A DNA stretch of 64,000 nucleotides from an uncultured Candidatus Saccharibacteria bacterium (GCA_964350645.1 CAYGJY010000002.1:340936-404935), one strand, 5' to 3'. Counted from the first letter of the stretch, positions 7,342-46,745 are shown. A program made the numbers and translations. Notes: generated from the letters alone by a model not told the origin.

Positions 7342-7351
7342 CTGTTGGCAG

Positions 7352-11883: not shown

Positions 11884-13065
11884 TTAGGCTAAGGCCTTAG
11901 CATTAATGCGTTTGAGTTGCGTGACTAGGTTGCTCATCGGAACGTGTTCTTGGCTGCGGGCATGCATGTTCCGTAAGATTACCGTGCCGTCAACATGTTC
12001 TTTCTGGCCGATAATTACTGTGTACTCAACGCCACGGGCTTCAGCATCCCTCAGTTGGGTTGAGAGTGAATCACAAGCAAGATTTTGGAAAACAGGAACG
12101 TTCTCTTTGCGGAGCTGGTCGATTAGCATAAGGCTAGAAATTTTTGGACCAAAACCGAGCTGTACTACGTACACTGAGGGTACATTGGTTTTTGGGATAC
12201 GCGGTATTCGGGCAGGGGCTTTTCGTTCGCGCATGACGACTACGGCGCCAGCGGCGGGAATTTCTTGTTTCGTGTGTCGCAGCATGAATTCATCGTAGCG
12301 CCCGCCGCGAATCTGTAGCGGCGATAGTGGGTCAGCTACACCCTCAGCGTCGTTGATGTCGAGAGCGAACAACGCATCTGAATAACAATGGTAGTGTCCC
12401 ATGAGCTTAGGATCAATTTCGTACGGAGTTTCACTCATGTCCAGAAATTCAACAATCTCACGAAAATGCTTACGGCTCGGATCACTTAAATGTTCGAGGG
12501 GGTTTGGACTACGGTAGGCCAGATCATGCTCTTTTTCTAGAAGATGCATCAGGGCATCAAAGACGTGCACTTTCATCAACTCTCGAGCAGCTACTGGCAT
12601 GTCGTCGAGGCGTTTTTTAAGATAGTTAGTAAGTTCGCGAGTGTAGCGAGTTGAAGAGTCACGGTCACCGAGCGAATTGATTCGGATGGTGTGATTGTCG
12701 TACCCAAGTTCAGTTGCTAGGGCGCGAGTAGTTTGAATAAGGATTGCCTCAGCAATACTTTTTTTCACACCAACTATTTGTAAGGCCAGGGCTACTTCAC
12801 CAGTGCGGGGTACTTGTTCAATGTTGTAGAACAATACTGGTTCCTCAAGAGCATGCATTTTAGCATCAGTATAGTTAGCCAGACCGTTGGTTAAAAGACC
12901 ATGGAGCGCATCAAGTTTGCGGTCAGCGGCTGTTGCTGAATGTTGAATCTTATCGCCGCACCGTTTACACAGGACATTTCTTTTGAAGGTGTCGGATGGT
13001 TGAAAACCGAAATGTTCAGCAGTGCTGGTTGCGGTTTTGAGGAAGTCTGTGCCGGTGATGTCCAT
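11884..13065 (-). CDS. hisS: histidine--tRNA ligase family protein (HisRS-like; catalytic motifs 1/2 not recognisable by eye)
   Basis: HisRS-specific …IRGGRYDEF… (GGRYD). Clear class IIa anticodon-binding domain: VYVVQLG…SLMLIDQLRKENVPV…QLRDAEARGVEYTVIIGQKEHVDGTVILRNM. An upstream in-frame stop limits the N-terminus to 393 aa. Confidence 0.55.
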   Translation of the reverse strand: MDITGTDFLKTATSTAEHFGFQPSDTFKRNVLCKRCGDKIQHSATAADRKLDALHGLLTNGLANYTDAKMHALEEPVLFYNIEQVPRTGEVALALQIVGVKKSIAEAILIQTTRALATELGYDNHTIRINSLGDRDSSTRYTRELTNYLKKRLDDMPVAARELMKVHVFDALMHLLEKEHDLAYRSPNPLEHLSDPSRKHFREIVEFLDMSETPYEIDPKLMGHYHCYSDALFALDINDAEGVADPLSPLQIRGGRYDEFMLRHTKQEIPAAGAVVVMRERKAPARIPRIPKTNVPSVYVVQLGFGPKISSLMLIDQLRKENVPVFQNLACDSLSTQLRDAEARGVEYTVIIGQKEHVDGTVILRNMHARSQEHVPMSNLVTQLKRINAKALA

Positions 13066-13084
13066 AGTAGTAGATAATTAGTGA

Positions 13085-13744
13085 TTAATTTGGTTCGCCG
13101 CCTCTCCCTGACAATGTCGCTTCTGATTGGTATCTGCCTGGGAAAACCCCGATTTCACCAATCGGGAAAAGTCGCAAGAGTGCGCGTCCGACGATCTTTT
13201 CCCGGGTCAGCACGCCCCACATTCGTGAGTCCGAGCTGGCATCGCGGTTATCACCCATGACAAAGTATTCACCATCACGGAGCTTTTCTTCAATACTGGC
13301 GTCGGGCTCCATAGTATTTATGTACGGCTCGTTGAGGATGACCCCTTGAGGATAGCTGTCGTTAAAAATAGTGACTGTATTGCCTTCAATAGTGAGTTTA
13401 TCGCCCGGCATTCCCACAATCCGCTTAATGAAGAACTTTGATGGGTCACGCGGGTAGCGGAAGATGATAACGTCTCCACGAGCTGGTTCTTCAAACCGGT
13501 AACTTAGCTGATCAACGATTAAATACTCGCCACCATGAAAGGTGTCTTCCATTGATGCTCCTGAGACAATAAAAGGTTGTGCGATAAACATCCGGATCGG
13601 TATGACGATGATAAGAGCAATAATTGCAAAGCGCACAATCTCAGTCAGTGGGTGTTCCTCTTTTTCAATGTCCGCCACAATGGCATCAACTGGGGTATCT
13701 ACTGATGATGAAAGATCTTTTTTGTCTTTTGAGAAGAAGCTCAT
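13085..13744 (-). CDS. lepB: signal peptidase I
   Basis: S26 boxes: GASMEDTF (Ser), GDVIIFRYP, KRIVGMPGD (Lys), GDNRDASSDSR. ATG at 13744 (MSFFSK…) chosen over the upstream ATG at 13783. Confidence 0.8.
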   Translation of the reverse strand: MSFFSKDKKDLSSSVDTPVDAIVADIEKEEHPLTEIVRFAIIALIIVIPIRMFIAQPFIVSGASMEDTFHGGEYLIVDQLSYRFEEPARGDVIIFRYPRDPSKFFIKRIVGMPGDKLTIEGNTVTIFNDSYPQGVILNEPYINTMEPDASIEEKLRDGEYFVMGDNRDASSDSRMWGVLTREKIVGRALLRLFPIGEIGVFPGRYQSEATLSGRGGEPN

Positions 13745-13866
13745 AGCAGTACAATTTCTACTAGTATAAATGAAAATAAACATTCGAACAAATTATCTGT
13801 TTCTGGTAATGATTGCAGCTGTACTTAGAGGCAGTCACGTTGTTGGATTGTGGTAATCTAGTGGTG

Positions 13867-34932: not shown

Positions 34933-34954
34933 AGATAACTCTGATAAAAGACAC

Positions 34955-34986
34955 AAAAAACTGGCTTGAAAGAGCCAGTTTTTTGT
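34955..34986. terminator. rho-independent terminator after clpB (aaaaaactggct-tgaaag-agccagtttttt)
   Basis: Perfect stem plus T6. Confidence 0.7.
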
Positions 34987-35146
34987 GTCTGCCTGTGCGC
35001 TGAGATGGAGGCGGTTCGACAACTTTGTGTAGTTTGAATTTGCTAATCAACAGCCCAAACCTTCCTTCAAAGTAAATATAAGAGATAATAAACATAAGAG
35101 CTTGATTACATTTGGGGTAGTCCCTGGAAGGACATACCCCGCTTCG

Positions 35147-35305
35147 CTATCGTCGGTGCTTTGTAGCATCGGCGAGAGTGAAGGTACGAGCTTTACCCCT
35201 GTAAGGAGGAACACGTTCACCTTTGGTGAGCGTGATTTCATATTTCGTACCATTCACACGATACTGGCCACTCTTTGGCGCAGTACCACCAGTCTTAGTA
35301 GACAT
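35147..35305 (-). CDS. candidate small ORF (52 aa, MSTKTGGTAPKSGQYRVNGTKYEITLTKGERVPPYRGKARTFTLADATKHRR)
   Basis: Found by manual translation (below the track cutoff). Basic and beta-rich. No SD sequence. Confidence 0.2.
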   Translation of the reverse strand: MSTKTGGTAPKSGQYRVNGTKYEITLTKGERVPPYRGKARTFTLADATKHRR

Positions 35306-35479
35306 AATGATGTGTAAATTACGGATTGATAATCTAACCGCCCTCGACAGGGACGGCCAGTTGTCATCCGTGTATCGAGAACAGATTATCTATTCCTGTG
35401 GAGAGACACCCCCAAATGCAATCAAAGTGCAATTCTGTAACTATTATACCAATATTAGTTACAAATAACATTTCAACAT

Positions 35480-35623
35480 ATGTCGATTTCAAAAGATGCA
35501 GCCGATGAGTTCAAGCGAATTCATAAAGAGAAGTACGATGCAGAGCTTGCTGGTGCAGGAAAACTCATGTCATCGCGGTATCTCCATGACTGGACTTGCT
35601 GTGATATGCGCGTAAAATCTTAA
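35480..35623 (+). CDS. candidate 47-aa upstream ORF translationally coupled to the 1265-aa gene (MSISKDAADEFKRIHKEKYDAELAGAGKLMSSRYLHDWTCCDMRVKS)
   Basis: ATG to TAA ending 4 nt before the ATG of 35627. Below the track cutoff. Confidence 0.25.
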   Translation: MSISKDAADEFKRIHKEKYDAELAGAGKLMSSRYLHDWTCCDMRVKS

Positions 35624-35626
35624 CTA

Positions 35627-38600
35627 ATGGTCAAATGGATTACAGCAACTGAAATTACAGCTTGGGTTAAGCGTGATAGTCGGCGTGCTCAGGAAAAATT
35701 GCCAGAATTGGTCCGCAAGCTGATACAAGCAACCGCATCATCTATAGATAGAATAAACTTTCCGTGCGACGGTAGTGTTACTTCCGGTGGTTGGGATGGG
35801 CATTTGGAAACGAAAGCAAAGACACCCTTTTTCCCAAGCGGACTATCAAAATGGGAAATGGGAGTTGGGGAGTCGTGCGGAAATAAGGCAGACAGTGATT
35901 ATAAGAGCCGGACAGCAGATCCTTTGGATGCTGTACCAGCTGATACTGTCTATGTCCAGGTTTCACCTCAGCCGTGGATAGATCGTGATAATTGGGTGAA
36001 AGCAAAAAAGACTGAGGACATATGGAAAGACGTTCGTGCAATTGGTGCCGACGACCTTGAGTTGTGGCTAGAATCAGCACCTGCAGTAGCATTATGGCTA
36101 GCAAAGGAGATGAAGAAGATCGGCTCTGCAATAAGGGACATAGAAGCTTGGTGGGAATATTGGTCAACCATGACAAATCCCTTTCTCAGTGTCGATCTGG
36201 TTATTTCTGGAAGACAAGACGAGGTCAATGAAATTCATGGGTGGTATAGGAACGGTCCTAATATTTTTGAGATGCAAGGCGATGATGCGCAAGAACCGTT
36301 CGCATTTTTATATTCAGCTCTATCAAAGTTACCGGAAGAAGAATGTCAGAGAGCTTTTTCAAGGTGTGTAGTTGTGGAAACAATTGAGCAGTTACGAGAT
36401 TGCTACGAGTCATTTGTTCATCCTCTAATTATAGCTGTCCCAGCAGAATGCATTGAAGAGGCACATATGGCAGTAAACAAAGGCCATCACGTATTTGTGA
36501 GCGCAAACGCAATGGATCGCTACCGTTATGTGCATAAACTTTCAAGAGCAAAGCGTGAACCAATGCAAGAAGCTTTAGAAAAGTTGGGATTGTCAGAGGC
36601 AGACGCCACTCGTTGTATTCGTAATACAGGGAGAAGCATTCCAGTCATTCGGCGCCAGAGGTTTAAAGCTAGTAACAAGACGCCAGAATGGGCTAAACAA
36701 GAAAATTCAAAGTTTTTACTTCCGGCGTTGTTGGCAGGAGCGTGGACTGATGGACGAGAGGGTGACAAAGAGATGATGGAGGCATTGTCTGGCATGCCTT
36801 ACAGTAAGTTTTCAAAGAGCATAAAGCCATTAACTAAGGTTGAAGACTCTCCCTTAATCAAAGTTGGGCATGTATGGATGTTAAAGTCACCTTTGGATGC
36901 TTGGTTTCTTGCTGCACAGTATTTAGATCAAGACGATTTTACCAATTTTAGACGAGGATTAAGTGCAGTATTAACTGAAACTGATCCAAAGTATGATCTT
37001 CCTTCTAGTGAACGTTGGATGGCAGGTGTAAAAGGTAAAACTCCAAAATGTTCAAGATGGGTTAGGAGGGGGTTGGTAGAGTCGTTAGTTTTGCTCTCAG
37101 TGTATGGTGACAAAATCTCTGAAGAAATTAATTCACCAGAAGATTTTGCGTATTCGGTAGTAAAGGATCTTTTAGATGCGGCTAATACATGGGAGGCATG
37201 GGCTACGCTAAAAGATGTAATGCCACTGCTTGCAGAAGCTTCACCTGATGCATTTATAGATGTTCTTGATGAGAAGATTGATTCTGAAAAAGAAATTTTT
37301 GTTGAGTTGATGAAGGATGATGAAGATCGTTTTGGCTTTGGTGATTGTCGTCACTCAGGCTTGTTATGGGCTTTGGAAAGTATTGCGTGGGACCCAGAAT
37401 ACGTCACCGCCGCGTCAATGGCGCTTTTAAAGTTGGCTCAAATTGATCCTGGTGGAAGATGGTCTAACAGACCACTTGCTAGTCTTACAGACATTTTATT
37501 ACCAGCATTGCCTCAGACTTACGCGAACGCAAAGCAGCGTGTTAAGGTTTACAAAAAGATTATTAAAGAAGACGCCGTGATTGCATGGCAGCTGGCAAGT
37601 AGTCACATGGGTGGTGGTACAGTTTCACCATCGCATTCTTTCCAATGGAGAGATATGGGTGGTGATAGAGGCGCGTTACAGCAAGTGTCGAGTGAGGATT
37701 ACACTGAGTATTTGAAGTCAATGTTTCCTATTTGGGCAGATTTAGTTTGTGTAAACAACTCTACGGTATCAAGTGGCATAGAGGATTTTATTCGGTTACC
37801 CGAAGAAATTAGAAAAAGTCTTGTAAAGAAACTTGACCAGTTAGATAAGAAATCTTTCTCAATTGAGGAAAGGAAGGTTATTTTGCAACACTTGAGACAC
37901 ACTTTAAATTGGATTCTCAATTATGATAAGGAAGAAAATTATAAAAAACACGTTCCGGCACTTAGGAGAGCCTATAATTTGTTAACGCCAGAGGATCCAT
38001 TGGATCGAATTGATTGGTTATTTCAAGACGGTTGGCCAGATTTACCAGAAGCAACAAAAAGACATGATCAACAGGAACGCCTTGAGGAACTTCGGATAGA
38101 GGCGGCGAAAATGCTGCTTGAAGAGGTGTCACTTGGTGCTATTGGAAAGTATGGCTCCGGATTGAATTATCAAGCAGCTTTTGGGTCAGCTTTTGCCAAG
38201 GCTGAAGGGAAAAAACATGATCCGGGTATTGTTAGTGAATTTTCAAAGTACGTAAAAGAAAGTCCATGGTTATTGGTTGGTTATGCGATGGGTTTGTTTG
38301 ATTCTGGTGGACAAAAGGCTGTTTTGGGTCAAATTGAGGTAGTTGAAGCAGGTAAGCTAAAATCACAAGAAAAAATCATTGCGTCACTCTTAAGAGGATT
38401 GCCTGAGCAAAGTGACACATGGTCCATTGTGGAATCTTACGGCGATCGAGTTGGTAAAGAATATTGGCTTTTGGCTTCTGGATATACAAGAAGAGATGAT
38501 CAGAAAAAACATGATGCAGAGTATGCGGTTAAAAAGCTTATTGATGTCGGTAGGCCTGGGGTCGCGGTTCGTATAGCTGGAGATTCACATGGTTCTTTAC

Positions 38601-39424
38601 CAAGTGCACTTCTAAAGCAGGTCCTGTTAGAACTTCTTAACTTAAGTGTTGAAGACAAGAATATGATTGATGGATCAATGTTGGAGTTTTATTTATCAAA
38701 TATATTTGACCAACTGTACAAAAATGACGATCTCACTTTAGAAGAGATTGGAGCTTTGGAGTGGCCATATGCACAAATTTTTGACCACCATCACAAAAGG
38801 ACTAAATCCCCAATGGCTTTGCATCAAAATCTACAAAGCAACCCAGGTTTTTTTGTAGAGCTTTTGTCGTACTTATATAAAAAGGATGATGGTTCAAATT
38901 CTAAGCCGGACAATCTATCAAAAAAACAAGCTGAAAATATTGCAAAGAACGCATACGAAGTTCTCCATACTTGGAGTCTGGTGCCGGGTGTAAGTAGTAG
39001 TGGAGAGGTAGATAAAGAGGTTCTGCGCGAATGGGTCATTACAGCTAGAAAAATGGCCAAAGAGCAAAGTTATTTAAAGGGCTGTGATCTTAAGTTGGCT
39101 GAGATTCTATCTAAAATGCCACAAGATTCAGATGGTGTGTGGCCTCATGTCGCACTGCGTGATCTGCTTGAAGAAGTAAAAAGCTCGATACTTGATAAGC
39201 ACATTCCATTTGCTATCTACAATAGCCGAGGAGTGCGTTCAAAAAGTTTGACGGATGGAGGAAGTGAAGAAAGAAGGTTGGCAGATAAATATATGGCCTG
39301 GTCGAAGGAGTTAAGTGATAACTGGCCGCGTACTTCTAGGGTTCTAAAAAACCTCTCCACTATGTTTAGTAGAGATGCAGAAAGAGAAGACATTGATTCC
39401 CAACTTCACGACTTAGAGTACTAG
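35627..39424 (+). CDS. large (1265 aa) predominantly alpha-helical protein of unknown function, cargo of integrative element
   Basis: Long uninterrupted ORF. No Walker A, HEPN, or nuclease motif recognisable by eye. Cys-containing N-terminal about 150 aa (…INFPCDGSVTSGGWDGHLE…GESCGNKADSDYKSR…). Confidence 0.7.
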   Translation: MVKWITATEITAWVKRDSRRAQEKLPELVRKLIQATASSIDRINFPCDGSVTSGGWDGHLETKAKTPFFPSGLSKWEMGVGESCGNKADSDYKSRTADPLDAVPADTVYVQVSPQPWIDRDNWVKAKKTEDIWKDVRAIGADDLELWLESAPAVALWLAKEMKKIGSAIRDIEAWWEYWSTMTNPFLSVDLVISGRQDEVNEIHGWYRNGPNIFEMQGDDAQEPFAFLYSALSKLPEEECQRAFSRCVVVETIEQLRDCYESFVHPLIIAVPAECIEEAHMAVNKGHHVFVSANAMDRYRYVHKLSRAKREPMQEALEKLGLSEADATRCIRNTGRSIPVIRRQRFKASNKTPEWAKQENSKFLLPALLAGAWTDGREGDKEMMEALSGMPYSKFSKSIKPLTKVEDSPLIKVGHVWMLKSPLDAWFLAAQYLDQDDFTNFRRGLSAVLTETDPKYDLPSSERWMAGVKGKTPKCSRWVRRGLVESLVLLSVYGDKISEEINSPEDFAYSVVKDLLDAANTWEAWATLKDVMPLLAEASPDAFIDVLDEKIDSEKEIFVELMKDDEDRFGFGDCRHSGLLWALESIAWDPEYVTAASMALLKLAQIDPGGRWSNRPLASLTDILLPALPQTYANAKQRVKVYKKIIKEDAVIAWQLASSHMGGGTVSPSHSFQWRDMGGDRGALQQVSSEDYTEYLKSMFPIWADLVCVNNSTVSSGIEDFIRLPEEIRKSLVKKLDQLDKKSFSIEERKVILQHLRHTLNWILNYDKEENYKKHVPALRRAYNLLTPEDPLDRIDWLFQDGWPDLPEATKRHDQQERLEELRIEAAKMLLEEVSLGAIGKYGSGLNYQAAFGSAFAKAEGKKHDPGIVSEFSKYVKESPWLLVGYAMGLFDSGGQKAVLGQIEVVEAGKLKSQEKIIASLLRGLPEQSDTWSIVESYGDRVGKEYWLLASGYTRRDDQKKHDAEYAVKKLIDVGRPGVAVRIAGDSHGSLPSALLKQVLLELLNLSVEDKNMIDGSMLEFYLSNIFDQLYKNDDLTLEEIGALEWPYAQIFDHHHKRTKSPMALHQNLQSNPGFFVELLSYLYKKDDGSNSKPDNLSKKQAENIAKNAYEVLHTWSLVPGVSSSGEVDKEVLREWVITARKMAKEQSYLKGCDLKLAEILSKMPQDSDGVWPHVALRDLLEEVKSSILDKHIPFAIYNSRGVRSKSLTDGGSEERRLADKYMAWSKELSDNWPRTSRVLKNLSTMFSRDAEREDIDSQLHDLEY

Positions 39425-39481
39425 ATAATCTTGAAAGTATTACCTAATTTACCAAAAGTAAAAGAGAAGGCATCAAATCTC

Positions 39482-40102
39482 TTAATAAACATTACGAAAT
39501 TCGTAGTAGCCATAACCAAGAATCTCTTTATTGAATACTACAACACCGTGTACACAGCCTGTTACAGCAGGGTAAAAAGTAAATGACGCTATATCTTCGG
39601 TAGGGTTGTTAATTGGTTGATTCTCAAGAATGCGTATGAGTGTGCTTACAAATGATAGCCATGATTCGTCATTTTTAAAATGCTCAGCGCTGATACCGTT
39701 ATTCCCTGTAGCTTCAAGTATTTCAACACGAAGTTTTTTCATATAGGCGAAATCCATCGATGGTGACTCTGTAGATACAGCCGCAGGATTTTCGATTTGT
39801 TTTTTTGCATCCAAATATATTTCAGACATCATTTGTCGCATGTTTTCAGTGACTCGGTCTTTTTCTGTATGTACCGTCCAGTCACAGTAAAATCTCAAAA
39901 GTGTGTGAGATCCTGTTTTCCAATGGTCACTTTTATGGTCCAGTATCTTTCTCATTTGAACCATGAAGTAAACAACTTCTTTCTCCGAACTGATACAAGG
40001 TATTTCGCCCAGTATTTCATTCAGCTTATGTACTATTTCTAGCTCTGCCATTTGTAGATTAAAGCATAAAAAGAATAGTTGCAGTAGTTTTGACCAAAAC
40101 AC
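39482..40102 (-). CDS. hypothetical protein (element cargo)
   Basis: 206-aa ORF on the opposite strand. An alternative ATG (MAELEIV…) lies at 40048. Confidence 0.5.
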   Translation of the reverse strand: MFWSKLLQLFFLCFNLQMAELEIVHKLNEILGEIPCISSEKEVVYFMVQMRKILDHKSDHWKTGSHTLLRFYCDWTVHTEKDRVTENMRQMMSEIYLDAKKQIENPAAVSTESPSMDFAYMKKLRVEILEATGNNGISAEHFKNDESWLSFVSTLIRILENQPINNPTEDIASFTFYPAVTGCVHGVVVFNKEILGYGYYEFRNVY

Positions 40103-40156
40103 AGCTATATGAGTACAATAGCTTTGAATCTTTGATTCTTATCAAAAATCAAACTT

Positions 40157-40426
40157 ATGGCACGAGGAGGCAAAAGACCAGGCGCCGGTCGTAAAAAAGG
40201 ATATGCAGCAAAGACCGCCGAAGAGACACGGAAAGTTATTGCTGAACTTGTTTCAAAAGATATTACCCCAATCACCAAGGCTTTAATTAAAAAAGCTAAA
40301 CAGGGTGATGTTCGCGCCTCTAGTCTATTGTTTGACAGAGCTTTTGGTAAGCAAACAAATGAACCTAAAAATCAGACCTTTTCTTTTAATGTAGCTGAAA
40401 TGAGGGAGAGGTATAAGCCTGATTAA
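40157..40426 (+). CDS. small basic putative DNA-binding protein with AT-hook-like N-terminus (MARGGKRPGAGRKKG…)
   Basis: 89 aa. The G-R-P/K-rich N-terminus resembles an AT-hook or phage small DNA-binding protein. Confidence 0.45.
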   Translation: MARGGKRPGAGRKKGYAAKTAEETRKVIAELVSKDITPITKALIKKAKQGDVRASSLLFDRAFGKQTNEPKNQTFSFNVAEMRERYKPD

Positions 40427-40641
40427 AAATTAAGACACCTTAGTGATTTTACTGAATTTGAAGAGCTATATTCATCACAAAATCGAGCTTGGTAGTATGT
40501 TTCTTCCCAATATCTGCTTTCGGTAGTATCAATTGTTTTGTAACTGATTCCTTGAAGTTCTATTATTAAAATTGTCAGTAGTATCAGAATGCCTAATTTG
40601 AACCAGTTTCTACTAATGAAAGATAAGATTTGTTTTTTCAT
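40423..40641 (-). CDS. small hypothetical membrane/secreted protein
   Basis: 72 aa with an N-terminal hydrophobic helix. AT-rich. Confidence 0.3.
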   Translation of the reverse strand: MKKQILSFISRNWFKLGILILLTILIIELQGISYKTIDTTESRYWEETYYQARFCDEYSSSNSVKSLRCLNF

Positions 40642-40903
40642 GTGTATTAATTATTGGGATATACAAAAAGCCCACTGCTAAAAGGTAGGACGTGAGTCCA
40701 CATGATCAGTTTCCCAAACATGACACAGAACGTGACCCCGTTAACAGCGGGTTCTTTATCGTTCTGTGGTTAACTTATTCGCACCATATCGCCAGCGAAC
40801 TGTCGGGTTAGGTGACTATATTGTTTAAGTAGTATTACACTGGCGTTTCCTGATTGCAATGTTTTTTAATCAGCATAAGATTAGTTTCTAAATGTAGATG
40901 TAA

Positions 40904-41650
40904 ATGAATATCAAGGCGCTTTTACAGAGAATACCCGTAGATTCCAGAATTCGTGAGATAACCAAAAACTATCGCGAAGCTATTGGTGTGCCGCTTGGCG
41001 GCTTTGATTCGTATGAAGATTGGGAATCTTGGTCAGTTAAGGTTGCTAATAAAAAACGGGGACTCAATTTCAATCAATATTTTAGGGAGATTAAAAAAAT
41101 TGTTCCCTACAAAGGAGTGGTTAGCAACAATGCTTTCAAGGGAGTGATATTGGATTTTTATTACATAAAGAATTTTGATGTGGAAGATCAATACCAAAAA
41201 TATCGCTTTGATTTATTTGGTGTAGGTTTAATCCTGAATAAAAAGACTGATGGTTTGAATCTAACTAAAGGAAAGGGACTTGAGGATGGAGTTTACATAC
41301 GAATCCCAAGTAACATTGACCCGAGCGAACTAAAAAAATTTGTGACAGAAAAGAAGGAAGTAATACGGTCCGTTCAGATGTTTTTTAATGAGAACAAAAA
41401 AATTGCTTCACCAAAACTAACGTATTTGAGTGGTCTTGAGCGAGATGAAATAATTTCAGCACTTTATGATTACTCACTAAAGGAGCTGGAAGAAATGACT
41501 GGTTTACCTAGAGAGGGATTAAATAGAGATGATTACACTGCTCTAGTTGTAGAGAAGTACCTTGGATTTAGTCCCACAAGTGGAGCGGCAGTTTTGCAGG
41601 CCAAAAAAAGGTTTCGTAGAAAAGAAAAAGGTCTTTGGGGGGACTACTAA
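40904..41650 (+). CDS. hypothetical protein (element cargo)
   Basis: 248-aa ORF, no motif recognised. Confidence 0.5.
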   Translation: MNIKALLQRIPVDSRIREITKNYREAIGVPLGGFDSYEDWESWSVKVANKKRGLNFNQYFREIKKIVPYKGVVSNNAFKGVILDFYYIKNFDVEDQYQKYRFDLFGVGLILNKKTDGLNLTKGKGLEDGVYIRIPSNIDPSELKKFVTEKKEVIRSVQMFFNENKKIASPKLTYLSGLERDEIISALYDYSLKELEEMTGLPREGLNRDDYTALVVEKYLGFSPTSGAAVLQAKKRFRRKEKGLWGDY

Positions 41651-41707
41651 CAAGTAGTTTATTTGTCCTCCTACTTTGAATGTCCAACTCTACATAGACT
41701 GTAGTTA

Positions 41708-41953
41708 ATGCTGTCGTATAAAGATGAAAATGTATATCAGACTTCTGATTTTGCAGAAGCTATCACTTTAAAATATTTTAGTCATCAAATTAAATTTGTT
41801 GACCGAAGTGAAAAACGGGCTGTTTTTCACTTTTTTCGCAAGGACAATACCCAAGAAGTTTTATCGGCATTTAGAGAGCGCGGTTTGAAGGTCGAGCCTT
41901 TTGCTTTTTACCAATGTGAACGTGAGGTTAAGTCTCGTCTTTATAACGGCTGA
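41708..41953 (+). CDS. hypothetical protein (element cargo)
   Basis: 81-aa ORF. Confidence 0.4.
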   Translation: MLSYKDENVYQTSDFAEAITLKYFSHQIKFVDRSEKRAVFHFFRKDNTQEVLSAFRERGLKVEPFAFYQCEREVKSRLYNG

Positions 41954-41954
41954 T

Positions 41955-42134
41955 ATGGAACTTCCGGAAGAACACATGAAAGAGTTTATCGCTCTATATA
42001 AAAAACACTACGGGGTGGTGCTTAGTCGTGATGAGGCGATACGAAAAGGTAAACAGTTAATGAGATTTGTTGAGATGGTTGAGTTCTCAAGCGATGATGT
42101 AAATGAAAATGACTATGACGTATTTACCCAGTAA
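41955..42134 (+). CDS. hypothetical small protein (element cargo)
   Basis: ATG at 41955 (MELPEEHMKEF…) 2 nt after the previous stop. The track ORF 41901 is N-extended. Confidence 0.3.
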   Translation: MELPEEHMKEFIALYKKHYGVVLSRDEAIRKGKQLMRFVEMVEFSSDDVNENDYDVFTQ

Positions 42135-42936
42135 GGAAATATATTTTAATACTGTACCTCATTACATTAAAGAGGATTTTTATGACGCTTCTAAACCACT
42201 TAATACACCAGAATTTAATTTAATAAACCATTTGAGAGTGGTAGCTAATAAGTTCGGGTACGTCCAAGTTACAGCCGATCAGCTAAGGGGTGACGTTTTT
42301 AGTAATCGGATCAAGAGGTGTAGGGTAAATGATTTACTCTTATCTATACGTAACCAGCAGTATATATGGTACGCAGACAGGAAGGGAAACGGAGGTACTT
42401 TTATAATCCAAAATAACTACTGGCTTGTGGCTGAAGGTATTTGGTATGTCGTTGATGATTCTGCTTGGCATAAAAACGGAGGTAGTGGTTTATGTAGACA
42501 GTTACCCAAAAAGGAGGATGTAATGGAGCTGAAAAATCAAAAACGGATGTTTAGAGAAGGTAATCAGATTGATAGTAAGGGCTATTTTGAACAAAAAGCA
42601 GATGCAGAAAACGGAAGTTCTTATACAGATAACGATACTAATAAAATTTACGATCGTACGAATAAGAAGAAAACTAAGACTAAAGACTTCATTCCTAACT
42701 CAAGTATTGATGATCAGCTACAAAGAATCGCCAAAGAAATAGGCGAAGAGCATATGGGATTCGTATTTTTTATTTATGGTAAGCATGGGGAGGATGGTAT
42801 TTTGATTATGGACAAAATTGCCAGAGATCTACGAGACAAGCAGGGGATAAAGAATAAAGGTGCGTATTTTAATAGTGAGGTGATTAGGGAGCTGCAAACT
42901 GATATCGCCATCCCGGTAGAAAAAGGTAGAATGTAA
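42103..42936 (+). CDS. hypothetical protein (element cargo)
   Basis: 277-aa ORF ending 7 nt before the recombinase gene. Confidence 0.5.
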   Translation: MKMTMTYLPSKEIYFNTVPHYIKEDFYDASKPLNTPEFNLINHLRVVANKFGYVQVTADQLRGDVFSNRIKRCRVNDLLLSIRNQQYIWYADRKGNGGTFIIQNNYWLVAEGIWYVVDDSAWHKNGGSGLCRQLPKKEDVMELKNQKRMFREGNQIDSKGYFEQKADAENGSSYTDNDTNKIYDRTNKKKTKTKDFIPNSSIDDQLQRIAKEIGEEHMGFVFFIYGKHGEDGILIMDKIARDLRDKQGIKNKGAYFNSEVIRELQTDIAIPVEKGRM

Positions 42937-42942
42937 TTAAGT

Positions 42943-44718
42943 ATGTCGTTTCAAGATAGATACAAAGCAAATAAATATTTTCTCTACATACGAAGGTCCC
43001 AAGATGCTGAGGATCGTCAGATGGCGTCACTTGAGGATCAAGAATCTGAAATGCTTTCAATAGCAGATCGTCTTGGACTTGATATTGTCGATACAATTAA
43101 GGAGTCACAATCAGCAAAGAAGCCAGGACGACCGAAATTTAATGAGATGCTTGCTCGCATCCATTCCGGTGAAGCAGATGGAATTCTGTGCTGGAAGATT
43201 AATCGTCTGGCTCGTAATCCAGTTGATGGTGGACAAATCTCTTGGTTATTACAGCAGGAGATTATTAAGCATATACAGACGTATTCGAGAGACTACCAGC
43301 CGACTGACAATGTGATTATGATGGCGGTTGAGCTTGGAATGGCTAATCAGTTTGTTAATGACCTCAGTGTTGATGTAAAGCGTGGAATGAGAAATAAAGC
43401 AGAGCGTGGTTGGAATCCTCAAAGACTATTGCCATCAGGTTACAAACACAATAAGGGATATGAAAAAGGTGAAGCTGAGATACTGAGTACCGATAAGTTG
43501 CCGATAGTTAAAAAACTTTTTACCGATATGCTGACTGGATCGTATTCACCAGCAGATATTCAAAGACTTAGTCAGACATACGGTTTAATGAATAAGTTTG
43601 GAAGACCACTAGCACTTCAAACGATACATAATATGCTCAGTAGTGAGTTTTACTGTGGTTACTACTACTGGAAGGGTCCAGATGGCTCTGAAGTGCGCTA
43701 TAAAGGCAAGCATGAGGTTATTTTGAGTGAAGATGAGTTCAATCAAGTCCAACGCCTTCTAGGTAAAAAAGGAAGGCCTACAAGAGTCAATAAATTAGAC
43801 TTTGCTTTTAGAGGTCCTTTGAACTGCGGAGAGTGTGGATATGCAGTAACAGCCGAAGATAAGGTTAGGACTTTGTGTACTGGATGTCGTTGTAAATTCT
43901 CCTGCAAGACCCAAACAGCATGTCCTAAGTGTGGTTTAGATATTTCAGAAATGAAGAATCCAAAGATTTATCATAATGTGTATTATCACTGTACGAAAAA
44001 GCGTAAAGACATAAAGTGTACTCAGAGTGTTATTGATGAAAAAGTACTGAAGAAACAAGTGTACTCAAAGTTGGGTGAAGTTGAGATTGATAAAGATTTC
44101 TATAATTGGGCTGTTGCAGCTTTAAAACATACTCATGGTGATGAGATGGAGACTCAAAGTGACATTTTGAAACATCTCAATGATCGCTCTGTTTCTATTC
44201 AGGCACGTATTGATAAATTGGTACTAATGAGGGCTGATGGTGAGATTTCTAGTGACCAGCTTGCTCGAATGACTGCTGAAGCAGAAAAGGATCTTAAGGA
44301 GGTTGAGAAGGAGCAGAAGCGTTTGCATGCAAGAATGACGGAGTGGTCCAGTACCGCAGATAAATACCTCACTTTTGCAGATAGGGTACGAAGAAAGTTC
44401 AATAAAGCTTCAAATGAGGAAAAGCGAGAGATGCTAGTGATGTTAGGTTCGACACTCGAAATTACTGATAAAAAATTCAATGTTATAGTCGCGAATGAGC
44501 TTTTAGGTTTCAAAAATGTATCTGTGAAGATAGGCAAGAGATTAGGTAGGTTCGACAATCAAAAAGCCCTTGATATACAAGGACTTTCTGACCAAAAACG
44601 CATGGTTTTTGACGAACTGTGCGCCGGGTTGGATTCGAACCAACGTAGGATAAATCCGACAGGTTTACAGCCTGTTGCAATTGACCACTCTGCCACCGAC
44701 GCGTCTATAAAATTGTGA
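42943..44718 (+). CDS. large serine recombinase (resolvase-domain integrase with recombinase domain, zinc ribbon and coiled-coil)
   Basis: N-terminal resolvase catalytic domain (YIRRSQDAED…GILCWKINRLARN). Cys-rich zinc beta-ribbon (CGECGY…CTGCRCKFSC…CPKCG). C-terminal coiled-coil. The last about 33 codons are antisense to tRNA-Tyr. Confidence 0.8.
   Translation: MSFQDRYKANKYFLYIRRSQDAEDRQMASLEDQESEMLSIADRLGLDIVDTIKESQSAKKPGRPKFNEMLARIHSGEADGILCWKINRLARNPVDGGQISWLLQQEIIKHIQTYSRDYQPTDNVIMMAVELGMANQFVNDLSVDVKRGMRNKAERGWNPQRLLPSGYKHNKGYEKGEAEILSTDKLPIVKKLFTDMLTGSYSPADIQRLSQTYGLMNKFGRPLALQTIHNMLSSEFYCGYYYWKGPDGSEVRYKGKHEVILSEDEFNQVQRLLGKKGRPTRVNKLDFAFRGPLNCGECGYAVTAEDKVRTLCTGCRCKFSCKTQTACPKCGLDISEMKNPKIYHNVYYHCTKKRKDIKCTQSVIDEKVLKKQVYSKLGEVEIDKDFYNWAVAALKHTHGDEMETQSDILKHLNDRSVSIQARIDKLVLMRADGEISSDQLARMTAEAEKDLKEVEKEQKRLHARMTEWSSTADKYLTFADRVRRKFNKASNEEKREMLVMLGSTLEITDKKFNVIVANELLGFKNVSVKIGKRLGRFDNQKALDIQGLSDQKRMVFDELCAGLDSNQRRINPTGLQPVAIDHSATDASIKL
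44620..44702 (-). tRNA. tRNA-Tyr (anticodon GTA), type II
   Basis: Minus-strand GCGTCGG-TG-GCAGAGTGGTCAATTGC-A-ACAGG-CTGTAAA-CCTGT-[CGGATTTATCCTACG]-GTTGGTTCGAATCCAAC-CCGGCGC-A. Entirely inside the 3' end of the recombinase ORF on the opposite strand. Confidence 0.8.
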
Positions 44719-44830
44719 TAGTACAGGTGACCGGTACGTTAGTATCGGCCACCTGTACGGTGCTATAAACTACCATATCTTTTACAATCCGAAAAGTACG
44801 TCTGCCTGTGCTACTATTTTGGTATTACAT

Positions 44831-45835
44831 ATGAAAGCTTTTTTACTGGGATTGGTCTGTTTGACGCTGTGTAGTTTTGTTGGGCCTGAATTAGCGCAGG
44901 CTCAATTGGTGGCTGAGCCATGTACGCCAGGTATTGATGATTGCCCTAGTACGAACCGTGAAGCTGCTCGGTATGGTACTTGCGAGTTTGTCGAAACGAT
45001 TCAGAACGTTTTTAACTTTGTCATCCAGATTTCTTCAATTCTAGTGGTTTTTATGCTCGCCTTCTATGGACTTTGGTTGGTGGTGTCTGGAGGTAATACA
45101 ACAGTCCGAGATAAGTTAAAAGAGTACCTTGTGAATGTCGTAGTCGGTCTACTCCTGATTATAGCTGCATATGCGATTGTAAACACTATTATCACAATCT
45201 TGGTTGCTGATGAAAAAGTTAAAACTAGCTGGGGTCAAATTGAGTGTATTTATCCAACTGCAGCGGTAGAAATTGAATTATATAGAGGCAGACCAACAGC
45301 GGTACCGGGAGTAACAGAAGGGGCTCTTTCTTCGGCAGCAGTCGAAGCTGGTGTTGTGGGAGTAGAACCATACCGGGAAGCAATTTGTGCTCGAGCTGCT
45401 GCTCGAGGTATCGGCTCTGAGTGTACTAAGATATTGGCACTTATGTCGGTTGAGTCCGCGGGACGACCATCGGTTGAAAGTCCGGCGGGAGCGGTTGGTT
45501 TAATGCAAATCATGCCAGCAACAGCCAAGACTTTGGATCCAGCTTTGTCTGGATTATCAGATACCGAAATTAAAAACCGCCTGAAAGATCCGAACTACAA
45601 CCTTGACTTAGGGATAAAATTTTATGCCCAGTTGAAAGAAGAGTTTGGTGAAGATCGCTTGGTGTGGGCGGCATACAACGGTGGACGAGGAGCTAATGGT
45701 GATAGTCGAGATTGTCCAGGTCTTCGCCGTTGGGAGTGTGAGTGGGATAATCCGGCCAAGACTATTCCCAATACTGGTTATAAAGAAACCCGCAACTATG
45801 TACCGAACATTATGAGGGCGCTCGAGAGGTTATAA
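44831..45835 (+). CDS. T4SS-pilin-like N-terminal module fused to lytic transglycosylase (SLT, VirB1-like) domain
   Basis: N-terminus: signal peptide, Cys pair (CTPGIDDCPS), two-helix pilin-like module (…FYGLWLVVSGGNTTVRDKLKEYLVNVVVGLLLIIAAYAIV…). C-terminus: …LMSVESAGRP…GAVGLMQIMP…AAYNGG (SLT catalytic Glu, GLMQ, AYNGG). ATG at 44831 (the track start 44819 is a TTG). Confidence 0.65.
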   Translation: MKAFLLGLVCLTLCSFVGPELAQAQLVAEPCTPGIDDCPSTNREAARYGTCEFVETIQNVFNFVIQISSILVVFMLAFYGLWLVVSGGNTTVRDKLKEYLVNVVVGLLLIIAAYAIVNTIITILVADEKVKTSWGQIECIYPTAAVEIELYRGRPTAVPGVTEGALSSAAVEAGVVGVEPYREAICARAAARGIGSECTKILALMSVESAGRPSVESPAGAVGLMQIMPATAKTLDPALSGLSDTEIKNRLKDPNYNLDLGIKFYAQLKEEFGEDRLVWAAYNGGRGANGDSRDCPGLRRWECEWDNPAKTIPNTGYKETRNYVPNIMRALERL

Positions 45836-45842
45836 TATCTGT

Positions 45843-46745
45843 ATGAATATGAGTACGTTATTTCGAGGTTTGCTAGTCGTGTTGATTACCACAGTGTTTG
45901 TTACTCCGTCACTCGTGTGGGGAGCTGAAGGGTTGGTTACCTGCGATGGCGTAGCGTCTAAAGGGGTTGAGTGTAATTTCTGTACCTTGGCACAAATGGT
46001 TGAGAAGGTGATTGACTTCATTGTGATAATCCTAGTGCTGATATCGGTGATTATGTTGGCTGTTACGGGTATTCAGATGGCTTATACAGCGGCCGGCAAC
46101 GGTAACGCTCTTGAGGTTCTCAAAGAGCGCATGACTAATATTGTGATTGGATTTTTCCTAATTTTAGCGGCTTGGACATTGGTGGATACGCTAGTAAAAG
46201 TATTGGTGGCAAATACTAGCGATAATGAAGTGGTACTTAGCTGGCGTACATTTGGTATGAGTGCAAGTGACTTGTGTGGCAAAACATTAAAGCCGGTAGA
46301 AGAAGTATTGTACTCAGCTGATTATGAAGCTTCTCTGACACCAGAAGCAGCAGCTGCTGCAGCTGAGGTTTATCCTGCAGGAGTATCGATTGTTCCGGAT
46401 TTAGAGAGTTTGGCGAGTTTACGTGAGGCAGGAGTTGTCGTGGCAGATTGGCATGGTATTGATGGGCCCGGCCGCACAGATAAAGCCCATCCTTCAGTGG
46501 TGAGCGCTGCAGTTAGGATGAATGAGGCGGCGATTGCTGAGTTTGGTAAACCAATATTTCAGATCACGGCCGCCACGACTGATGGAGTAGGGCATAGTGC
46601 AAATAGTCAACATTATAAGGGAACAGCTATTGATTTAGATCCAATCAACGGAGCGACTACAGCTCAGGTAAAGGCTTTGGCTAAGAGTGCTGGTTGTACA
46701 TTTATCCTAGACCATGGTTCTCACGTTCATTGTGATTTTAGGTAG
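45843..46745 (+). CDS. T4SS-pilin-like N-terminal module fused to LAS/M15-type zinc peptidase-like domain (putative peptidoglycan peptidase)
   Basis: N-terminus: signal peptide, Cys pair (CDG…CNFC), two-helix module (…MAYTAAGNGNALEVLKERMTNIVIGFFLILAAWTLV…). C-terminus: …GVGHSANSQHYKGTAIDLD…DHGSHVHCDF (H-x6-D … H-x-H, the LAS metallopeptidase pattern). Confidence 0.6.
   Translation: MNMSTLFRGLLVVLITTVFVTPSLVWGAEGLVTCDGVASKGVECNFCTLAQMVEKVIDFIVIILVLISVIMLAVTGIQMAYTAAGNGNALEVLKERMTNIVIGFFLILAAWTLVDTLVKVLVANTSDNEVVLSWRTFGMSASDLCGKTLKPVEEVLYSADYEASLTPEAAAAAAEVYPAGVSIVPDLESLASLREAGVVVADWHGIDGPGRTDKAHPSVVSAAVRMNEAAIAEFGKPIFQITAATTDGVGHSANSQHYKGTAIDLDPINGATTAQVKALAKSAGCTFILDHGSHVHCDFR

Follow-up and report, generated by a model that had tools for sequence, protein, structure and literature searches.

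Within a 64,000-nucleotide stretch of DNA from an uncultured Candidatus Saccharibacteria bacterium (hereafter, the window), positions 34993-44624 very probably represent a 9.6-kb Patescibacteria integrative element, which was inserted at the 3' end of tRNA-Tyr by its own large serine recombinase (LSR) and whose attP site lies within the recombinase gene (int). This reading draws on the anatomy of the region (Table 1) and its clade-wide conservation, on near-identical relatives that display both junction states, and on assembly-graph evidence for an empty site. The initial annotation had assigned the island to 34990-44718; the island itself stands, and its limits are redrawn here, with two copies of CTGTGCGC as left and right borders and an element length of 9,624 bp.

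Table 1. Features of the element and its junctions (positions counted from the first letter of the window).
Feature	Position	Strand	Basis or remark
Perfect 18-bp hairpin	34949..34990	.	Inverted repeat I4, 100% complementary; directly after clpB
attL core CTGTGCGC	34993..35000	+	Direct repeat D5; left copy of the 8-bp identity block containing the crossover
P' arm of attP (displaced native int 3' end)	35001..35037	+	Translation in the core's frame: (C A) E M E A V R Q L C V V stop
Non-coding left-end region	35102..35425	.	Long-range inverted repeat I1, 35102-35125 / 35402-35425, 24 nt, 83% complementary
YjzC-like small ORF, 52 aa	35147..35305	-	Weak Pfam YjzC match, E 0.0045, sub-cutoff; gene call in L081 and L166
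47-aa ORF abutting the 1265-aa gene start	35480..35623	+	Gene calls; no family match
1265-aa cargo protein, phrog_18693	35627..39424	+	PHROG E 1.8e-172
Orphan protein, 189-206 aa	39482..40102	-	ORF list and gene calls; no family match
89-aa basic protein, AT-hook-like N-terminus	40157..40426	+	Weakly like DUF5681 and small terminase subunits
72-aa ORF, hydrophobic N-terminal stretch	40423..40641	-	ORF translation
248-aa protein, first gene of int-proximal operon	40904..41650	+	Like-sized proteins at the same position in L082 and L083
DUF5659 protein, 81 aa, conserved core	41708..41953	+	Pfam DUF5659 4.8e-5, at gathering score; in 17 related loci
Acidic protein, 59 aa	41955..42134	+	Upstream of int in 25 listed related loci (27 by automated count); gene call in L166
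277-aa protein: winged-helix domain, disordered linker, helical C-terminal domain	42103..42936	+	
Large serine integrase, integrated form, 591 aa	42943..44718	+	Pfam; phrog_95 integrase 2.3e-65
Two hairpins on the tRNA-sense strand	44558..44611	-	Antisense to int codons ~539-557; second hairpin followed by a T-tract; just 3' of the tRNA
attR core CTGTGCGC	44617..44624	+	Direct repeat D5; right copy; overlaps the discriminator base and acceptor-stem end
tRNA-Tyr(GTA)	44619-44702	-	ARAGORN; Rfam tRNA 59.7 bits; chromosomal, intact, CCA not encoded

An AT-rich stretch with about eleven ORFs had been described after clpB, and both composition and gene content agree with that description. The GC content is 39.7% in the island and 46.4% across the remainder of the window; 9.6-kb windows outside the island average 46.7% (sd 0.57%, minimum 45.2%), which places the island about 12 sd away. 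The ORF list and the gene calls both give approximately eleven ORFs between clpB and tRNA-Tyr. Of the anticipated compositional break, the difference is thus evident and a sharp left-hand step is not, as GC declines gradually on that side, from 41.9% in the gene for the 1265-aa protein to 36-37% in the middle and core.

The region had also been described as a compact integrative island rather than a standard prophage, devoid of recognisable capsid, terminase or relaxase genes, and this assessment holds at its size of 9.6 kb. Searches of the island with Pfam, PHROGs and NCBIfam returned no match to capsid, portal, large terminase or tail genes, nor to any virion, relaxase or tyrosine-recombinase gene, and small-terminase-like matches remained sub-threshold. 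The Phage_integrase domain is absent from every island ORF (Pfam), the sole recombinase being of the serine type. Outside int, DUF5659 alone reaches the Pfam gathering score, and the remaining family matches are a weak, sub-threshold DUF5681 and a PHROG of unknown function. These findings support an integrated, non-prophage island mobilised by an LSR at tRNA-Tyr, and its cargo is non-viral.

The 1265-aa protein had been listed as a protein of unknown function, and it indeed matches only a PHROG of that kind. It has 281 homologues, the best 120 of which span 1194-1279 aa, and homologues are located in other mobile elements. Its AlphaFold model (pLDDT 84) shows alpha/beta domains at the N-terminus together with a long alpha-solenoid. 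Foldseek placed Avs4 and SAMD9 as the top matches to this model with TM-scores of only about 0.15, and an assignment as an Avs/SAMD9-like STAND defence protein was rejected, given the lack of a Walker A motif and of any PADLOC, Pfam or NCBIfam match. Among the smaller features, the left-end region, which contains no Rfam family, is a possible origin or regulatory region, and the 72-aa ORF possibly encodes a small membrane protein, judging from its translation. The 248-aa protein shows no tblastn similarity at 1e-4, and its positional counterparts measure 222 aa in L082 and 232 aa in L083. The 59-aa acidic protein is the most widely conserved partner of int and may act as a regulator or recombination directionality factor; no such factor was recognised in the element. 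The 277-aa protein is a candidate DNA-binding replication or regulatory protein.

Under an alternative interpretation, a helper phage packages the island, which would be either a phage satellite or a cryptic miniature prophage. The 89-aa protein resembles DUF5681 (Pfam E 0.0013, below cutoff), phrog_15261 (1.6e-6) and the small terminase subunit phrog_24579 (4e-4), the 1265-aa cargo falls in a PHROG, and serine recombinases, primase-helicases and small-terminase homologues occur in marine virion-encapsidated elements of comparable size (PMC9618062). In addition, the relative L083, the sole locus with a recognisable replication gene, possesses a Prim-Pol/AAA_25 gene, and one distant relative lies in an IMG/VR contig. 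However, against that single IMG/VR locus stand over 500 metagenome loci, neither the window nor the relatives L082-L085 contain capsid, portal, large terminase or tail genes, and the small-terminase-like matches are under curated thresholds; helper-dependent packaging is therefore regarded as unlikely. The comparison with Prochlorococcus tycheposons and VEIMEs is instructive in this regard. They are likewise small, tRNA-associated or satellite-like elements with a modular integration/replication core and variable cargo, and a minority of them use LSRs. Of 937 tycheposons and cryptic elements, 910 rely on tyrosine recombinases. Of the tycheposon hallmarks, a tRNA site and an integrase are present in the window, and a replication gene is recognisable only in L083. 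They differ in their hosts, in that no packaging genes were seen in the window element, and in that the available portions of their descriptions mention neither an int/tRNA overlap nor a C-terminal swap.

The preferred reading, an element integrated by its own LSR, centres on int. A 591-aa large serine recombinase reading antisense through the whole tRNA had been proposed, and the ORF at 42943-44718 bears this out, with codons 559-591 spanning the entire tRNA-Tyr in antisense. Of its proposed domains, the resolvase domain is confirmed (Pfam Resolvase 8.2e-18 at residues 13-156), followed by a Recombinase domain (PF07508, DBD1; 1.8e-10 at residues 184-274), and R17, R18, S19, Q20 and D21 are invariant across 27 homologues. 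The zinc ribbon is seen only as a weak, sub-cutoff match to Zn_ribbon_recom (E 0.0057, 17.5 bits against a 25.3-bit cutoff) spread over residues 289-376. Cys 295, 298, 350 and 359 are nevertheless invariant, as is a nested CxxC pair (312/315 and 327/330), a pattern that would fit a zinc ribbon carrying an insertion. The sole PDB match to Int is the C-terminal domain of the A118 integrase (E 6e-8). As to the proposed coiled-coil, residues ~410-470 appear heptad-like by eye.

Residues 1-561 of Int are encoded by the element, and residues 562-591 by the antisense strand of the chromosomal tRNA-Tyr. When the left side of attR is joined to the right side of attL, the frame remains open for 11 more codons and then stops, yielding a 572-aa Int that ends in LCAEMEAVRQLCVV; this restored tail is of the type seen in tRNA-free relatives, and its 11 native residues are now stranded at attL (34999-35037). 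The tail type, C(A/S)E(M/L/I)ExVR(Q/T)xC.., is encoded by the island end opposite int in L082 (twice), L094, L110 and L115. It also closes int at L084 and L085, both of them tRNA-free, and forms the C-terminus of proteins P0022, P0025, P0045 and P0052. The read-through is thus a product of integration: int reads through the tRNA because attP, as the sequence indicates, lies inside the int 3' end, so that a tRNA-encoded tail replaces the native one. In the proposed mechanism, attP would occupy the last ~12 int codons, with int coding sequence as the P arm and a P' arm encoding EMEAVRQLCVV-stop, and attB would consist of the clpB/tRNA-Tyr terminator (B arm) and the tRNA acceptor end and T-arm (B' arm). 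Recombination, presumably catalysed by the element's Int, would leave the tRNA intact, strand the native tail at attL and fuse int to the antisense tRNA, extending the protein from 572 to 591 aa.

The attachment sites are consistent with this scheme. The 8-bp core is the only repeat shared by attL and attR, and attL carries the displaced int tail and no tRNA fragment; the lack of such a fragment at the int-distal end is accounted for by serine-integrase chemistry, which predicts short identity. Because the crossover lies in the final bases of the tRNA, at the discriminator base and the end of the acceptor stem, almost no tRNA sequence needs to be reconstituted. Accordingly, the integration geometry envisaged in the initial annotation stands, whereas its "reconstitution of the tRNA" was overstated. 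The crossover falls within TGTGCGC (codons L-C-A 559-561), to which the probable central dinucleotide can be placed no finer, and (C/T)TGTGCGCCG occurs at the junction in 12/12 aligned tRNA-Tyr loci. Palindromic att cores had been anticipated; the core was found at both ends, but the P and P' arms show no clear symmetry. The P' arm contains a T-loop-like GGTTCGAC motif, which is conserved at attL of L082 (two sites), L089, L094, L110 and L115 and at the int 3' ends of L084 and L085; a second attL in L082 is degenerate. Counted from GCGC, a TTCGAAC-like motif begins at +9 in the tRNA and at +14 in P'; the Tyr, Asn and His classes all show this 5-bp outward shift in the element-side half-site. 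In serine integrases, the outer half-site motif is about 5 bp nearer the centre in attB than in attP (PMC11722253). The P' arm imitates the tRNA T-arm with its TTCGAAC motif 5 bp farther from the crossover, as expected of a zinc-ribbon-domain motif in attP and attB half-sites.

Both junction states are represented among relatives. L084, with a native tail, and L090, joined to tRNA-Tyr, share 99.66% identity over 7,336 nt, which stops at TGTGCGCCGAG, inside the int ORF. The Logan contig L166, a second assembly of the same island (window 34971-44646), has both its ends precisely 31 nt away from the outermost element-specific bases (35001 and 44616); its right-hand break lies within tRNA-Tyr, 22 nt past the core. 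As Logan assemblies use k=31, ends lying k beyond the core borders imply that a putative empty attB allele co-exists in sample ERR3534985. L166 is unbroken at 44624/44625, and the circular form was not detectable in this sample. The ends of L085 overlap by 22 nt, whereas a closed circle assembled at k=31 should overlap by 30 nt, which only hints at circularity. An empty-site pattern search of JGI metagenomes found nothing, exact-protein look-ups returned island-bearing contigs only, and no attB or attP read or contig was recovered for this exact element. More broadly, among loci whose Int is at least 49% identical, int enters tRNA-Tyr in 14, tRNA-Asn in 25 and tRNA-His in 5, and in all 44 joined loci the tRNA 3' end is entered, always in antisense. 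Approximately 70 of the best 120 Int homologues have T-arm-antisense tails and 33 have native hRT tails.

On the other hand, the island might be a decayed, immobile relic, with an Int damaged by tRNA fusion and a read-through of no consequence. The integrated Int does lack the native tail and its widely conserved hRT motif, the attP form went undetected in the L166 sample, a directionality factor was not recognised, and relics of this type do exist, as the second attL of L082 illustrates. Such decay is nonetheless quite improbable, considering that the int ORF is intact with all catalytic and putative zinc-binding residues conserved, the cores are identical at both ends, the assembly graph implies island-free cells in the sibling sample, and the fused state recurs across three tRNA targets, with one 99.7% identical pair showing both states.

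The chromosomal tRNA-Tyr makes up the B' arm of attB. Its 3' end had been reported to point into the element, and ARAGORN and Rfam concur, placing the gene on the minus strand with its 3' end towards lower coordinates. Comparison with genomes lacking the insertion, which the initial annotation had recommended, identified six related Patescibacteria in which clpB and tRNA-Tyr are separated by 50-470 nt that contain no cargo. It is hardly credible that tRNA-Tyr belongs to the element, overlapping int, with the true attachment site elsewhere: the gene does lie wholly within the int ORF, mobile elements often carry tRNAs, and its orientation relative to clpB is opposite in most relatives to that in the window, but native-tail relatives have no tRNA, the L166 break coincides with the predicted chromosome/element junction, the neighbourhood (T4SS-pilin-like genes, tRNA-Trp and tRNA-Leu-CAA) is common to relatives with or without islands, and ARAGORN finds no other tRNA-Tyr in the window. 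Equally implausible is the proposal that protein constraint alone explains the C-terminal coding features (native tail, hairpins), with no attP inside int and a crossover downstream in non-coding DNA. In its favour, CGA has become AGA in L089 and L094, which keeps arginine yet breaks the TTCGA motif and suggests protein-level selection. However, the L084/L090 homology and the L166 graph both break inside the ORF, the latter at the core borders, and a displaced tail lies at the opposite end of each integrated island.

Integration at this position may also affect transcription termination. The hairpin directly after clpB, whose right arm makes up the B arm of attB/attL, is a predicted bidirectional terminator, and at the inferred empty site it would serve the convergent tRNA-Tyr as well. 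Insertion would strip the tRNA of this terminator, and the element would provide a substitute on the antisense strand of int. The two hairpins at 44558..44611 are a candidate for such a replacement, with an MFE of -27.2 kcal/mol (z -7.1) and covariation in which 90.7% of cells are paired and 5 pairs are changed on both sides, against 33-67% paired in slid controls (12 sequences). Terminator-like hairpins are present in 28/39 integrated loci, compared with 4/39 and 5/39 in controls; a simple built-in terminator scan did not call the hairpin in the window.

Several known systems share parts of this arrangement. Phage LSRs (A118/LI, Bxb1, phiC31 and SPbeta) have in common with the window Int a resolvase domain with an invariant serine, a recombinase domain, short att identity and an outer motif 5 bp nearer the centre in attB than in attP; a zinc-ribbon domain may also be shared. 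However, the window Int is only about 22% identical to them, targets a tRNA gene, not a protein-coding one, has attP inside its own ORF and an extra nested CxxC pair in the putative zinc-ribbon region, and resides in Patescibacteria. In myxophage Mx8 (IntP/IntX), attP likewise lies within int, and integration yields a recombinant gene whose 3' end is new and whose product has a changed C-terminus (PMC6070905; PMC4383910, citing Tojo 1996), but Mx8 Int is a tyrosine recombinase, and the window element swaps only 11 residues. The "suicidal" SSV-type archaeal integrases also have their recombination site inside the integrase ORF (PMC7253208; Islander paper); these are tyrosine recombinases whose gene is split into two inactive halves, unlike the nearly full-length window enzyme. 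The TIGER/Islander survey (Mageeney et al. 2020) computationally observed S-Int elements at t(m)RNA genes in 14 of 297 cases, stating that S-Int use of tRNA genes "has not been reported previously" and must still be proven; the att architecture and an attP inside int are not described there.

To date, no description of an LSR clade specialised on tRNA 3' ends was found in the literature. The relatives examined here, which come largely from uncultured Patescibacteria and from other metagenomic lineages, tentatively point to a widespread clade of this kind, which would enter the 3' ends of tRNA-Tyr, tRNA-Asn and tRNA-His genes through an attP in its own last codons, with P' as a 5-bp-shifted T-arm mimic. 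Integration might then serve as a molecular switch, swapping the hRT tail for a tRNA-encoded one, thereby changing activity or directionality as in Mx8 IntP/IntX, and installing a replacement tRNA terminator. If this is true, the near-universal T-arm sequence suggests that the enzymes of this clade might be redirected to tRNA genes across a wide range of organisms.

Sequence comparison places the attachment site of the element itself (attP) within the coding sequence of Int, the large serine recombinase (LSR) of the island. Int homologues with E <= 1e-10 numbered 2,060, and C-terminal tails were compared in the best 120 of these. Almost all of the nearest homologues end in LCAG(L/R/E)DSN(Q/L)RR..., the peptide encoded antisense by a tRNA acceptor stem and T-arm, and the more distant ones within the best 120 end in ...L..VRTSII...; a rough regular-expression count over the same set gave about 70 tRNA-type, 33 native and 17 other tails. 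Native tails close the homologous proteins P0022, P0025, P0045 and P0052 with LCAGMELVRTWCVG, LCAGMEMVRTRCFA, LCAEIEAVRQFCSV and LCAELEAVRTFCLA, respectively. Two of the corresponding loci, L084 (encoding P0045) and L085 (encoding P0022), are without the tRNA; L085 carries a 22-nt terminal repeat, and its ORF stays open when the two ends are joined, suggestive of a circle of about 8.4 kb. Over 7,336 nt, L084 and L090 are 99.66% identical; in L090 int runs into tRNA-Tyr, and the two diverge directly after TGTGCGCCGAG. The pair thus shows one element in two junction states, with the switch point inside the ORF. The predicted unintegrated length of the window's Int is 572 aa, in comparison with 572 aa for P0045 and 571 aa for P0022.

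The initial annotation had described an AT-rich island of about eleven ORFs following the clpB terminator and ending in an LSR gene that reads tRNA-Tyr antisense. Both descriptions were borne out by ARAGORN, Rfam, Pfam, base composition and ORF coordinates: the interval between the clpB terminator and tRNA-Tyr holds about eleven ORFs, and the final 33 int codons are antisense to the entire tRNA. The compositional break is clear, with 39.7% GC in the island versus 46.4% elsewhere in the window, where no 9.6-kb stretch falls below 45.2% (sd 0.57%). Feature coordinates are collected in the table.

Features of the window and of related loci (coordinates refer to the locus named)
Locus	Feature	Position	Strand	Remarks
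Window	clpB terminator	34949-34990		perfect 18-bp hairpin
Window	island, span of GC measurement	34993-44624		
Window	left core, CTGTGCGC (family D5)	34993-35000		
Window	left end searched for structured RNA	34995-35480		
Window	1265-aa cargo gene	35627-39424		phrog_18693, end to end
Window	int-proximal operon			248-aa protein, DUF5659, 59-aa protein, 277-aa protein, int
Window	int ORF	42943-44718	+	591 aa; Pfam Resolvase 8.2e-18, Recombinase 1.8e-10, Zn_ribbon_recom sub-threshold
Window	int start in public gene calls	43021		Met27; 565 aa, P0001
Window	cysteine-rich region of Int	43825-44020		residues 295-359
Window	right core, CTGTGCGC (family D5)	44617-44624		
Window	tRNA-Tyr(GTA)	44619-44702	-	ARAGORN; Rfam 59.7 bits
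Window	inverted repeat, ACAGGTGACCGGTAC / GTATCGGCCACCTGT	44719-44760		imperfect, 15 bp
Window	two host genes	44819-46745		
Window	segment identical to L166	34971-44646		
L082	tandem attL-like sites	341-1080		
L082	native-type tails	372 and 1047		in frame
L094	native-type tail	2114		in frame
L110	native-type tail	4938		in frame
L115	native-type tail	154		in frame
L089	native-type tail	125		more degenerate
L169	element with 1265-aa homologue	5073-13567		
L171	element with 1265-aa homologue	1585-11798		
L001	tRNA-Tyr, hairpin, inverted copy	13700-13824		island-free
L003	tRNA-Tyr, hairpin, inverted copy	12838-12950		island-free
L008	tRNA-Tyr, hairpin, inverted copy	8153-8260		island-free
L009	tRNA-Tyr, hairpin, inverted copy	12834-12940		island-free
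L011	tRNA-Tyr, hairpin, inverted copy	12812-12920		island-free

Domain content and conserved residues, as read from sequence, identify Int as a large serine recombinase. Public-collection gene callers begin the gene at an internal methionine, but homologue alignment favours the upstream ATG (MSFQDRYKANKYFLY...), thereby including the conserved YxRRSQD catalytic motif. Eight invariant cysteines in its zinc-ribbon region comprise the pairs C295/C298 and C350/C359 with nested C312/C315 and C327/C330; the nested ones suggest that DBD2 carries an inserted second zinc ribbon, a possible reason for the sub-threshold Zn_ribbon_recom score. The int stop is followed directly, on the chromosomal side and shortly upstream of the 5' end of tRNA-Tyr, by an inverted repeat that might be a terminator of the fused int transcript or part of the tRNA promoter region.

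A search for att cores at both island ends, proposed at the outset, returned the 8-bp sequence CTGTGCGC as the sole repeat joining them. Such an 8-mer is weak evidence alone, and the boundary is set there because three independent lines agree. First, when the sequence left of the right core is joined to that right of the left core, the int frame stays open, reading ...F D E L C A / E M E A V R Q L C V V stop, with the junction at the slash. Second, in-frame native-type tails are found at the far end of the related islands L082, L094, L110 and L115, with a more degenerate copy in L089. Third, the Logan contig ERR3534985_59265 (L166, 9,676 bp) starts exactly 31 nt before 35001, the first base past the left core; its other end lies exactly 31 nt after 44616, the final base ahead of the right core. 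Logan assemblies use k=31 (PMC12424806). These ends would be expected if the graph were branched by another molecule joining 34970-35000 straight to 44625 onward, that is, an empty chromosomal site (attB). Since L166 is unbroken at 44624/44625, no attP junction was abundant in ERR3534985. In the sibling sample ERR3534981, contig L081 passes through both junctions. The attB junction would be AGCCAGTTTTTTGTGTCTGC-CTGTGCGC-CGGGTTGGATTCGAACC and the attP junction GGTTTTTGACGAA-CTGTGCGC-TGAGATGGAGGCGGTTCGAC, with the central dinucleotide placed no closer than within TGTGCGC.

Other placements of the crossover were considered and rejected. Two positions further into the tRNA, the shared TGGA and the centre of symmetry of the TTGACGAAC / GTTCGACAA repeats, conflict with the difference between the left and right junctions (attL and attR) there in both the window and L082 (AG vs GG), and they imply an ancestral tRNA unable to fold. 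Within int, the palindrome CCTTGATATACAAGG falls short of the junction-state homology, which runs about 45 nt further, and is better read as a terminator-like hairpin. Because the P' arm of attP resembles a tmRNA 5' end, the left end was also suspected of encoding a tmRNA or other structured RNA; neither ARAGORN nor Rfam detected one, and the sequence is accounted for as the displaced int tail.

Separately, L082 contains two attL-like sites 675 bp apart, the first degenerate and the second intact, each after a terminator hairpin, with a 124-aa minus-strand ORF between them; this arrangement appears to be what is left of an earlier element in the same tRNA-Tyr site.

Comparison with relatives lacking the insertion likewise agreed with the initial annotation. 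The closest ClpB relatives are metagenome-assembled Patescibacteria (Paceibacteria and Kaiserbacteria-type) at 60-68% identity. Six of them have tRNA-Tyr 50-470 nt downstream of clpB with nothing between, followed, as in the window, by tRNA-Trp and tRNA-Leu(CAA). Because these six keep clpB and tRNA-Tyr adjacent and the window has 9.7 kb, the cargo has been inserted into a conserved neighbourhood. JGI metagenomes, queried with a gapped pattern for the empty site, gave 0 matches, and looking up the exact protein sequences of ClpB, Int and the pilin-like protein downstream produced either no match or contigs that all bear the island.

Several further observations concern this neighbourhood. The two host genes beside tRNA-Tyr encode N-terminal hydrophobic segments with weak T4SS_pilin matches, the first also with a lytic transglycosylase (SLT) domain, and similar pilin-like genes flank tRNA-Tyr in L082. 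In five island-free genomes, tRNA-Tyr and a terminator hairpin are followed by an inverted copy of the tRNA 3' end (acceptor strand and T-arm) that co-varies with the tRNA of each genome; three have a hairpin of about 22 nt inserted into it, and in most of the five tRNA-Tyr is oriented opposite to the window's. No Rfam family, tmRNA or ORF accounts for this copy; it may derive from an inversion of the tRNA, or be an attB half-site that is a relic or serves as a decoy. The contigs L087, L089, L090 and L091, with related integrases, end a few tens of nt beyond the tRNA-Tyr 5' end, which may reflect assembly breaks from strain heterogeneity at a tRNA-Tyr hotspot.

The range of targets was surveyed in metagenome contigs, first by an alignment-driven scan and then with tblastn and ARAGORN. 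At Int identities of at least 49%, int ran into a minus-strand tRNA-Tyr at its 3' end in 14/14 loci; at 36-44% identity, 25 loci ran into tRNA-Asn(GTT) and 5 into tRNA-His(GTG), and in the other surveyed loci the tail was native or the contig truncated. Where the frame stops is a matter of chance in the antisense tRNA, from zero to about 40 codons past the end of homology to the window protein, so the tRNA-encoded tail itself is unconserved.

The half-sites share a regular architecture. Beyond the common GCGC, the tRNA reads CGGGTTGGA-TTCGAAC and the P' arm TGAGATGGAGGCGG-TTCGAC, placing the T-loop-like motif 5 bp farther out in P'. In the tRNA-Asn class, GCTCCG is followed by 9 nt to the motif in the tRNA versus 14 nt in the native-tail locus L135; in the tRNA-His class, GAACC lies at +11 in the tRNA versus +16 in L144, again a 5-bp offset. 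Such a shift of the motif for DBD2, the zinc-ribbon domain, distinguishes attB from attP half-sites of serine integrases (PMC11722253). On this rule, we read the tRNA T-arm as the zinc-ribbon-domain motif of B', matched in P' by the V-R-(T/Q) codons of the native tail. The native tail is probably also under protein-level selection, because CGA -> AGA changes in L089 and L094 retain the arginine. Between the left arms, one terminator and the other int coding sequence, only a T-run is shared.

Integration cuts tRNA-Tyr off from the clpB/tRNA terminator. The 69 nt now downstream of tRNA-Tyr form two hairpins on the tRNA-sense strand, the second ending in UUUUU, with a minimum free energy of -27.2 kcal/mol; shuffled sequences gave -10.6 +/- 2.3 (z = -7.1). 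Among 12 relatives, 90.7% of cells are paired versus 33-67% with slid partners, and five pairs are changed on both sides. A custom hairpin-plus-T-tract rule, applied to 39 distinct integrated loci, found a site within 90 nt of the tRNA in 28/39, including 12/12 tRNA-Tyr loci, versus 4/39 on the int-sense strand and 5/39 at 300 nt deeper; a built-in terminator scan did not call the window's hairpin. A putative tRNA-Tyr terminator function is plausible, with belief about evenly balanced.

The gene content of the island is sparse in recognizable functions, with no virion, relaxase or tyrosine-recombinase gene present. Outside int, only DUF5659 reaches the Pfam gathering score; the remaining matches are a PHROG of unknown function and a sub-threshold DUF5681. 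Among related loci, DUF5659 turns up in 17, the 277-aa protein in 14 and the 59-aa protein in 25 listed ones (script count 27). By position and co-occurrence only, the 59-aa protein is the obvious candidate directionality factor; the 277-aa protein was considered as a replication initiator, and generic winged-helix similarity was all that emerged. The 1265-aa protein has 281 homologues, those listed mostly about 1,265 aa and without a Pfam domain, in CPR, Margulisbacteria and one 4.3-Mb genome. They lie repeatedly inside other mobile elements (L169, L171): one member is in an island splitting a comM-like/Mg-chelatase gene, and another neighbours a different LSR in a locus with terminase-like and methylase genes. 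The family is a candidate uncharacterised single-gene cargo module. The model of the 1265-aa protein (pLDDT 84) comprises alpha/beta domains and a long solenoid; Foldseek ranked Avs4 and SAMD9 at the top with TM-scores of only about 0.15, and because both a Walker A motif and defence-library matches are absent, the protein is not a STAND NTPase.

Large-DNA genome engineering relies mainly on serine integrases, and to our knowledge the textbook view is that these enzymes target protein-coding genes, not tRNA genes. The TIGER survey placed 14/297 serine-integrase elements at t(m)RNA genes, stating that such use 'has not been reported previously' and that proof was needed, and a large LSR catalogue never mentions tRNA. 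Int is distant from the studied enzymes, with about 22% identity to phage LSRs and only one distant phage-borne relative locus in IMG/VR. In the location of its attP it resembles the tyrosine integrase of Mx8, for which attP within int and a C-terminus changed on integration are documented (PMC6070905; PMC4383910). SSV-type integrases also have attP inside int, but the gene is split on integration (PMC7253208). Tycheposons and marine virion-encapsidated elements use serine recombinases in a minority, and the descriptions consulted contain no such int/tRNA junction. Literature searches covering serine integrases, tRNA targets and elements of Patescibacteria yielded no report of attP inside int for a serine integrase.

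What is out of the ordinary is the att architecture and the tRNA-targeting clade; the island as such is ordinary. The window locus and at least 43 related loci present a coherent att architecture for tRNA-targeting serine integrases, with an acceptor-end crossover, the T-arm as putative zinc-ribbon-domain motif and the predicted 5-bp attP/attB offset present. An attP inside its own integrase gene was documented earlier for tyrosine integrases such as those of Mx8 and SSV. The system supplies ready-made attP/attB pairs, a natural test of C-terminal swaps tuning directionality, and a handle on the mobile elements of Patescibacteria.
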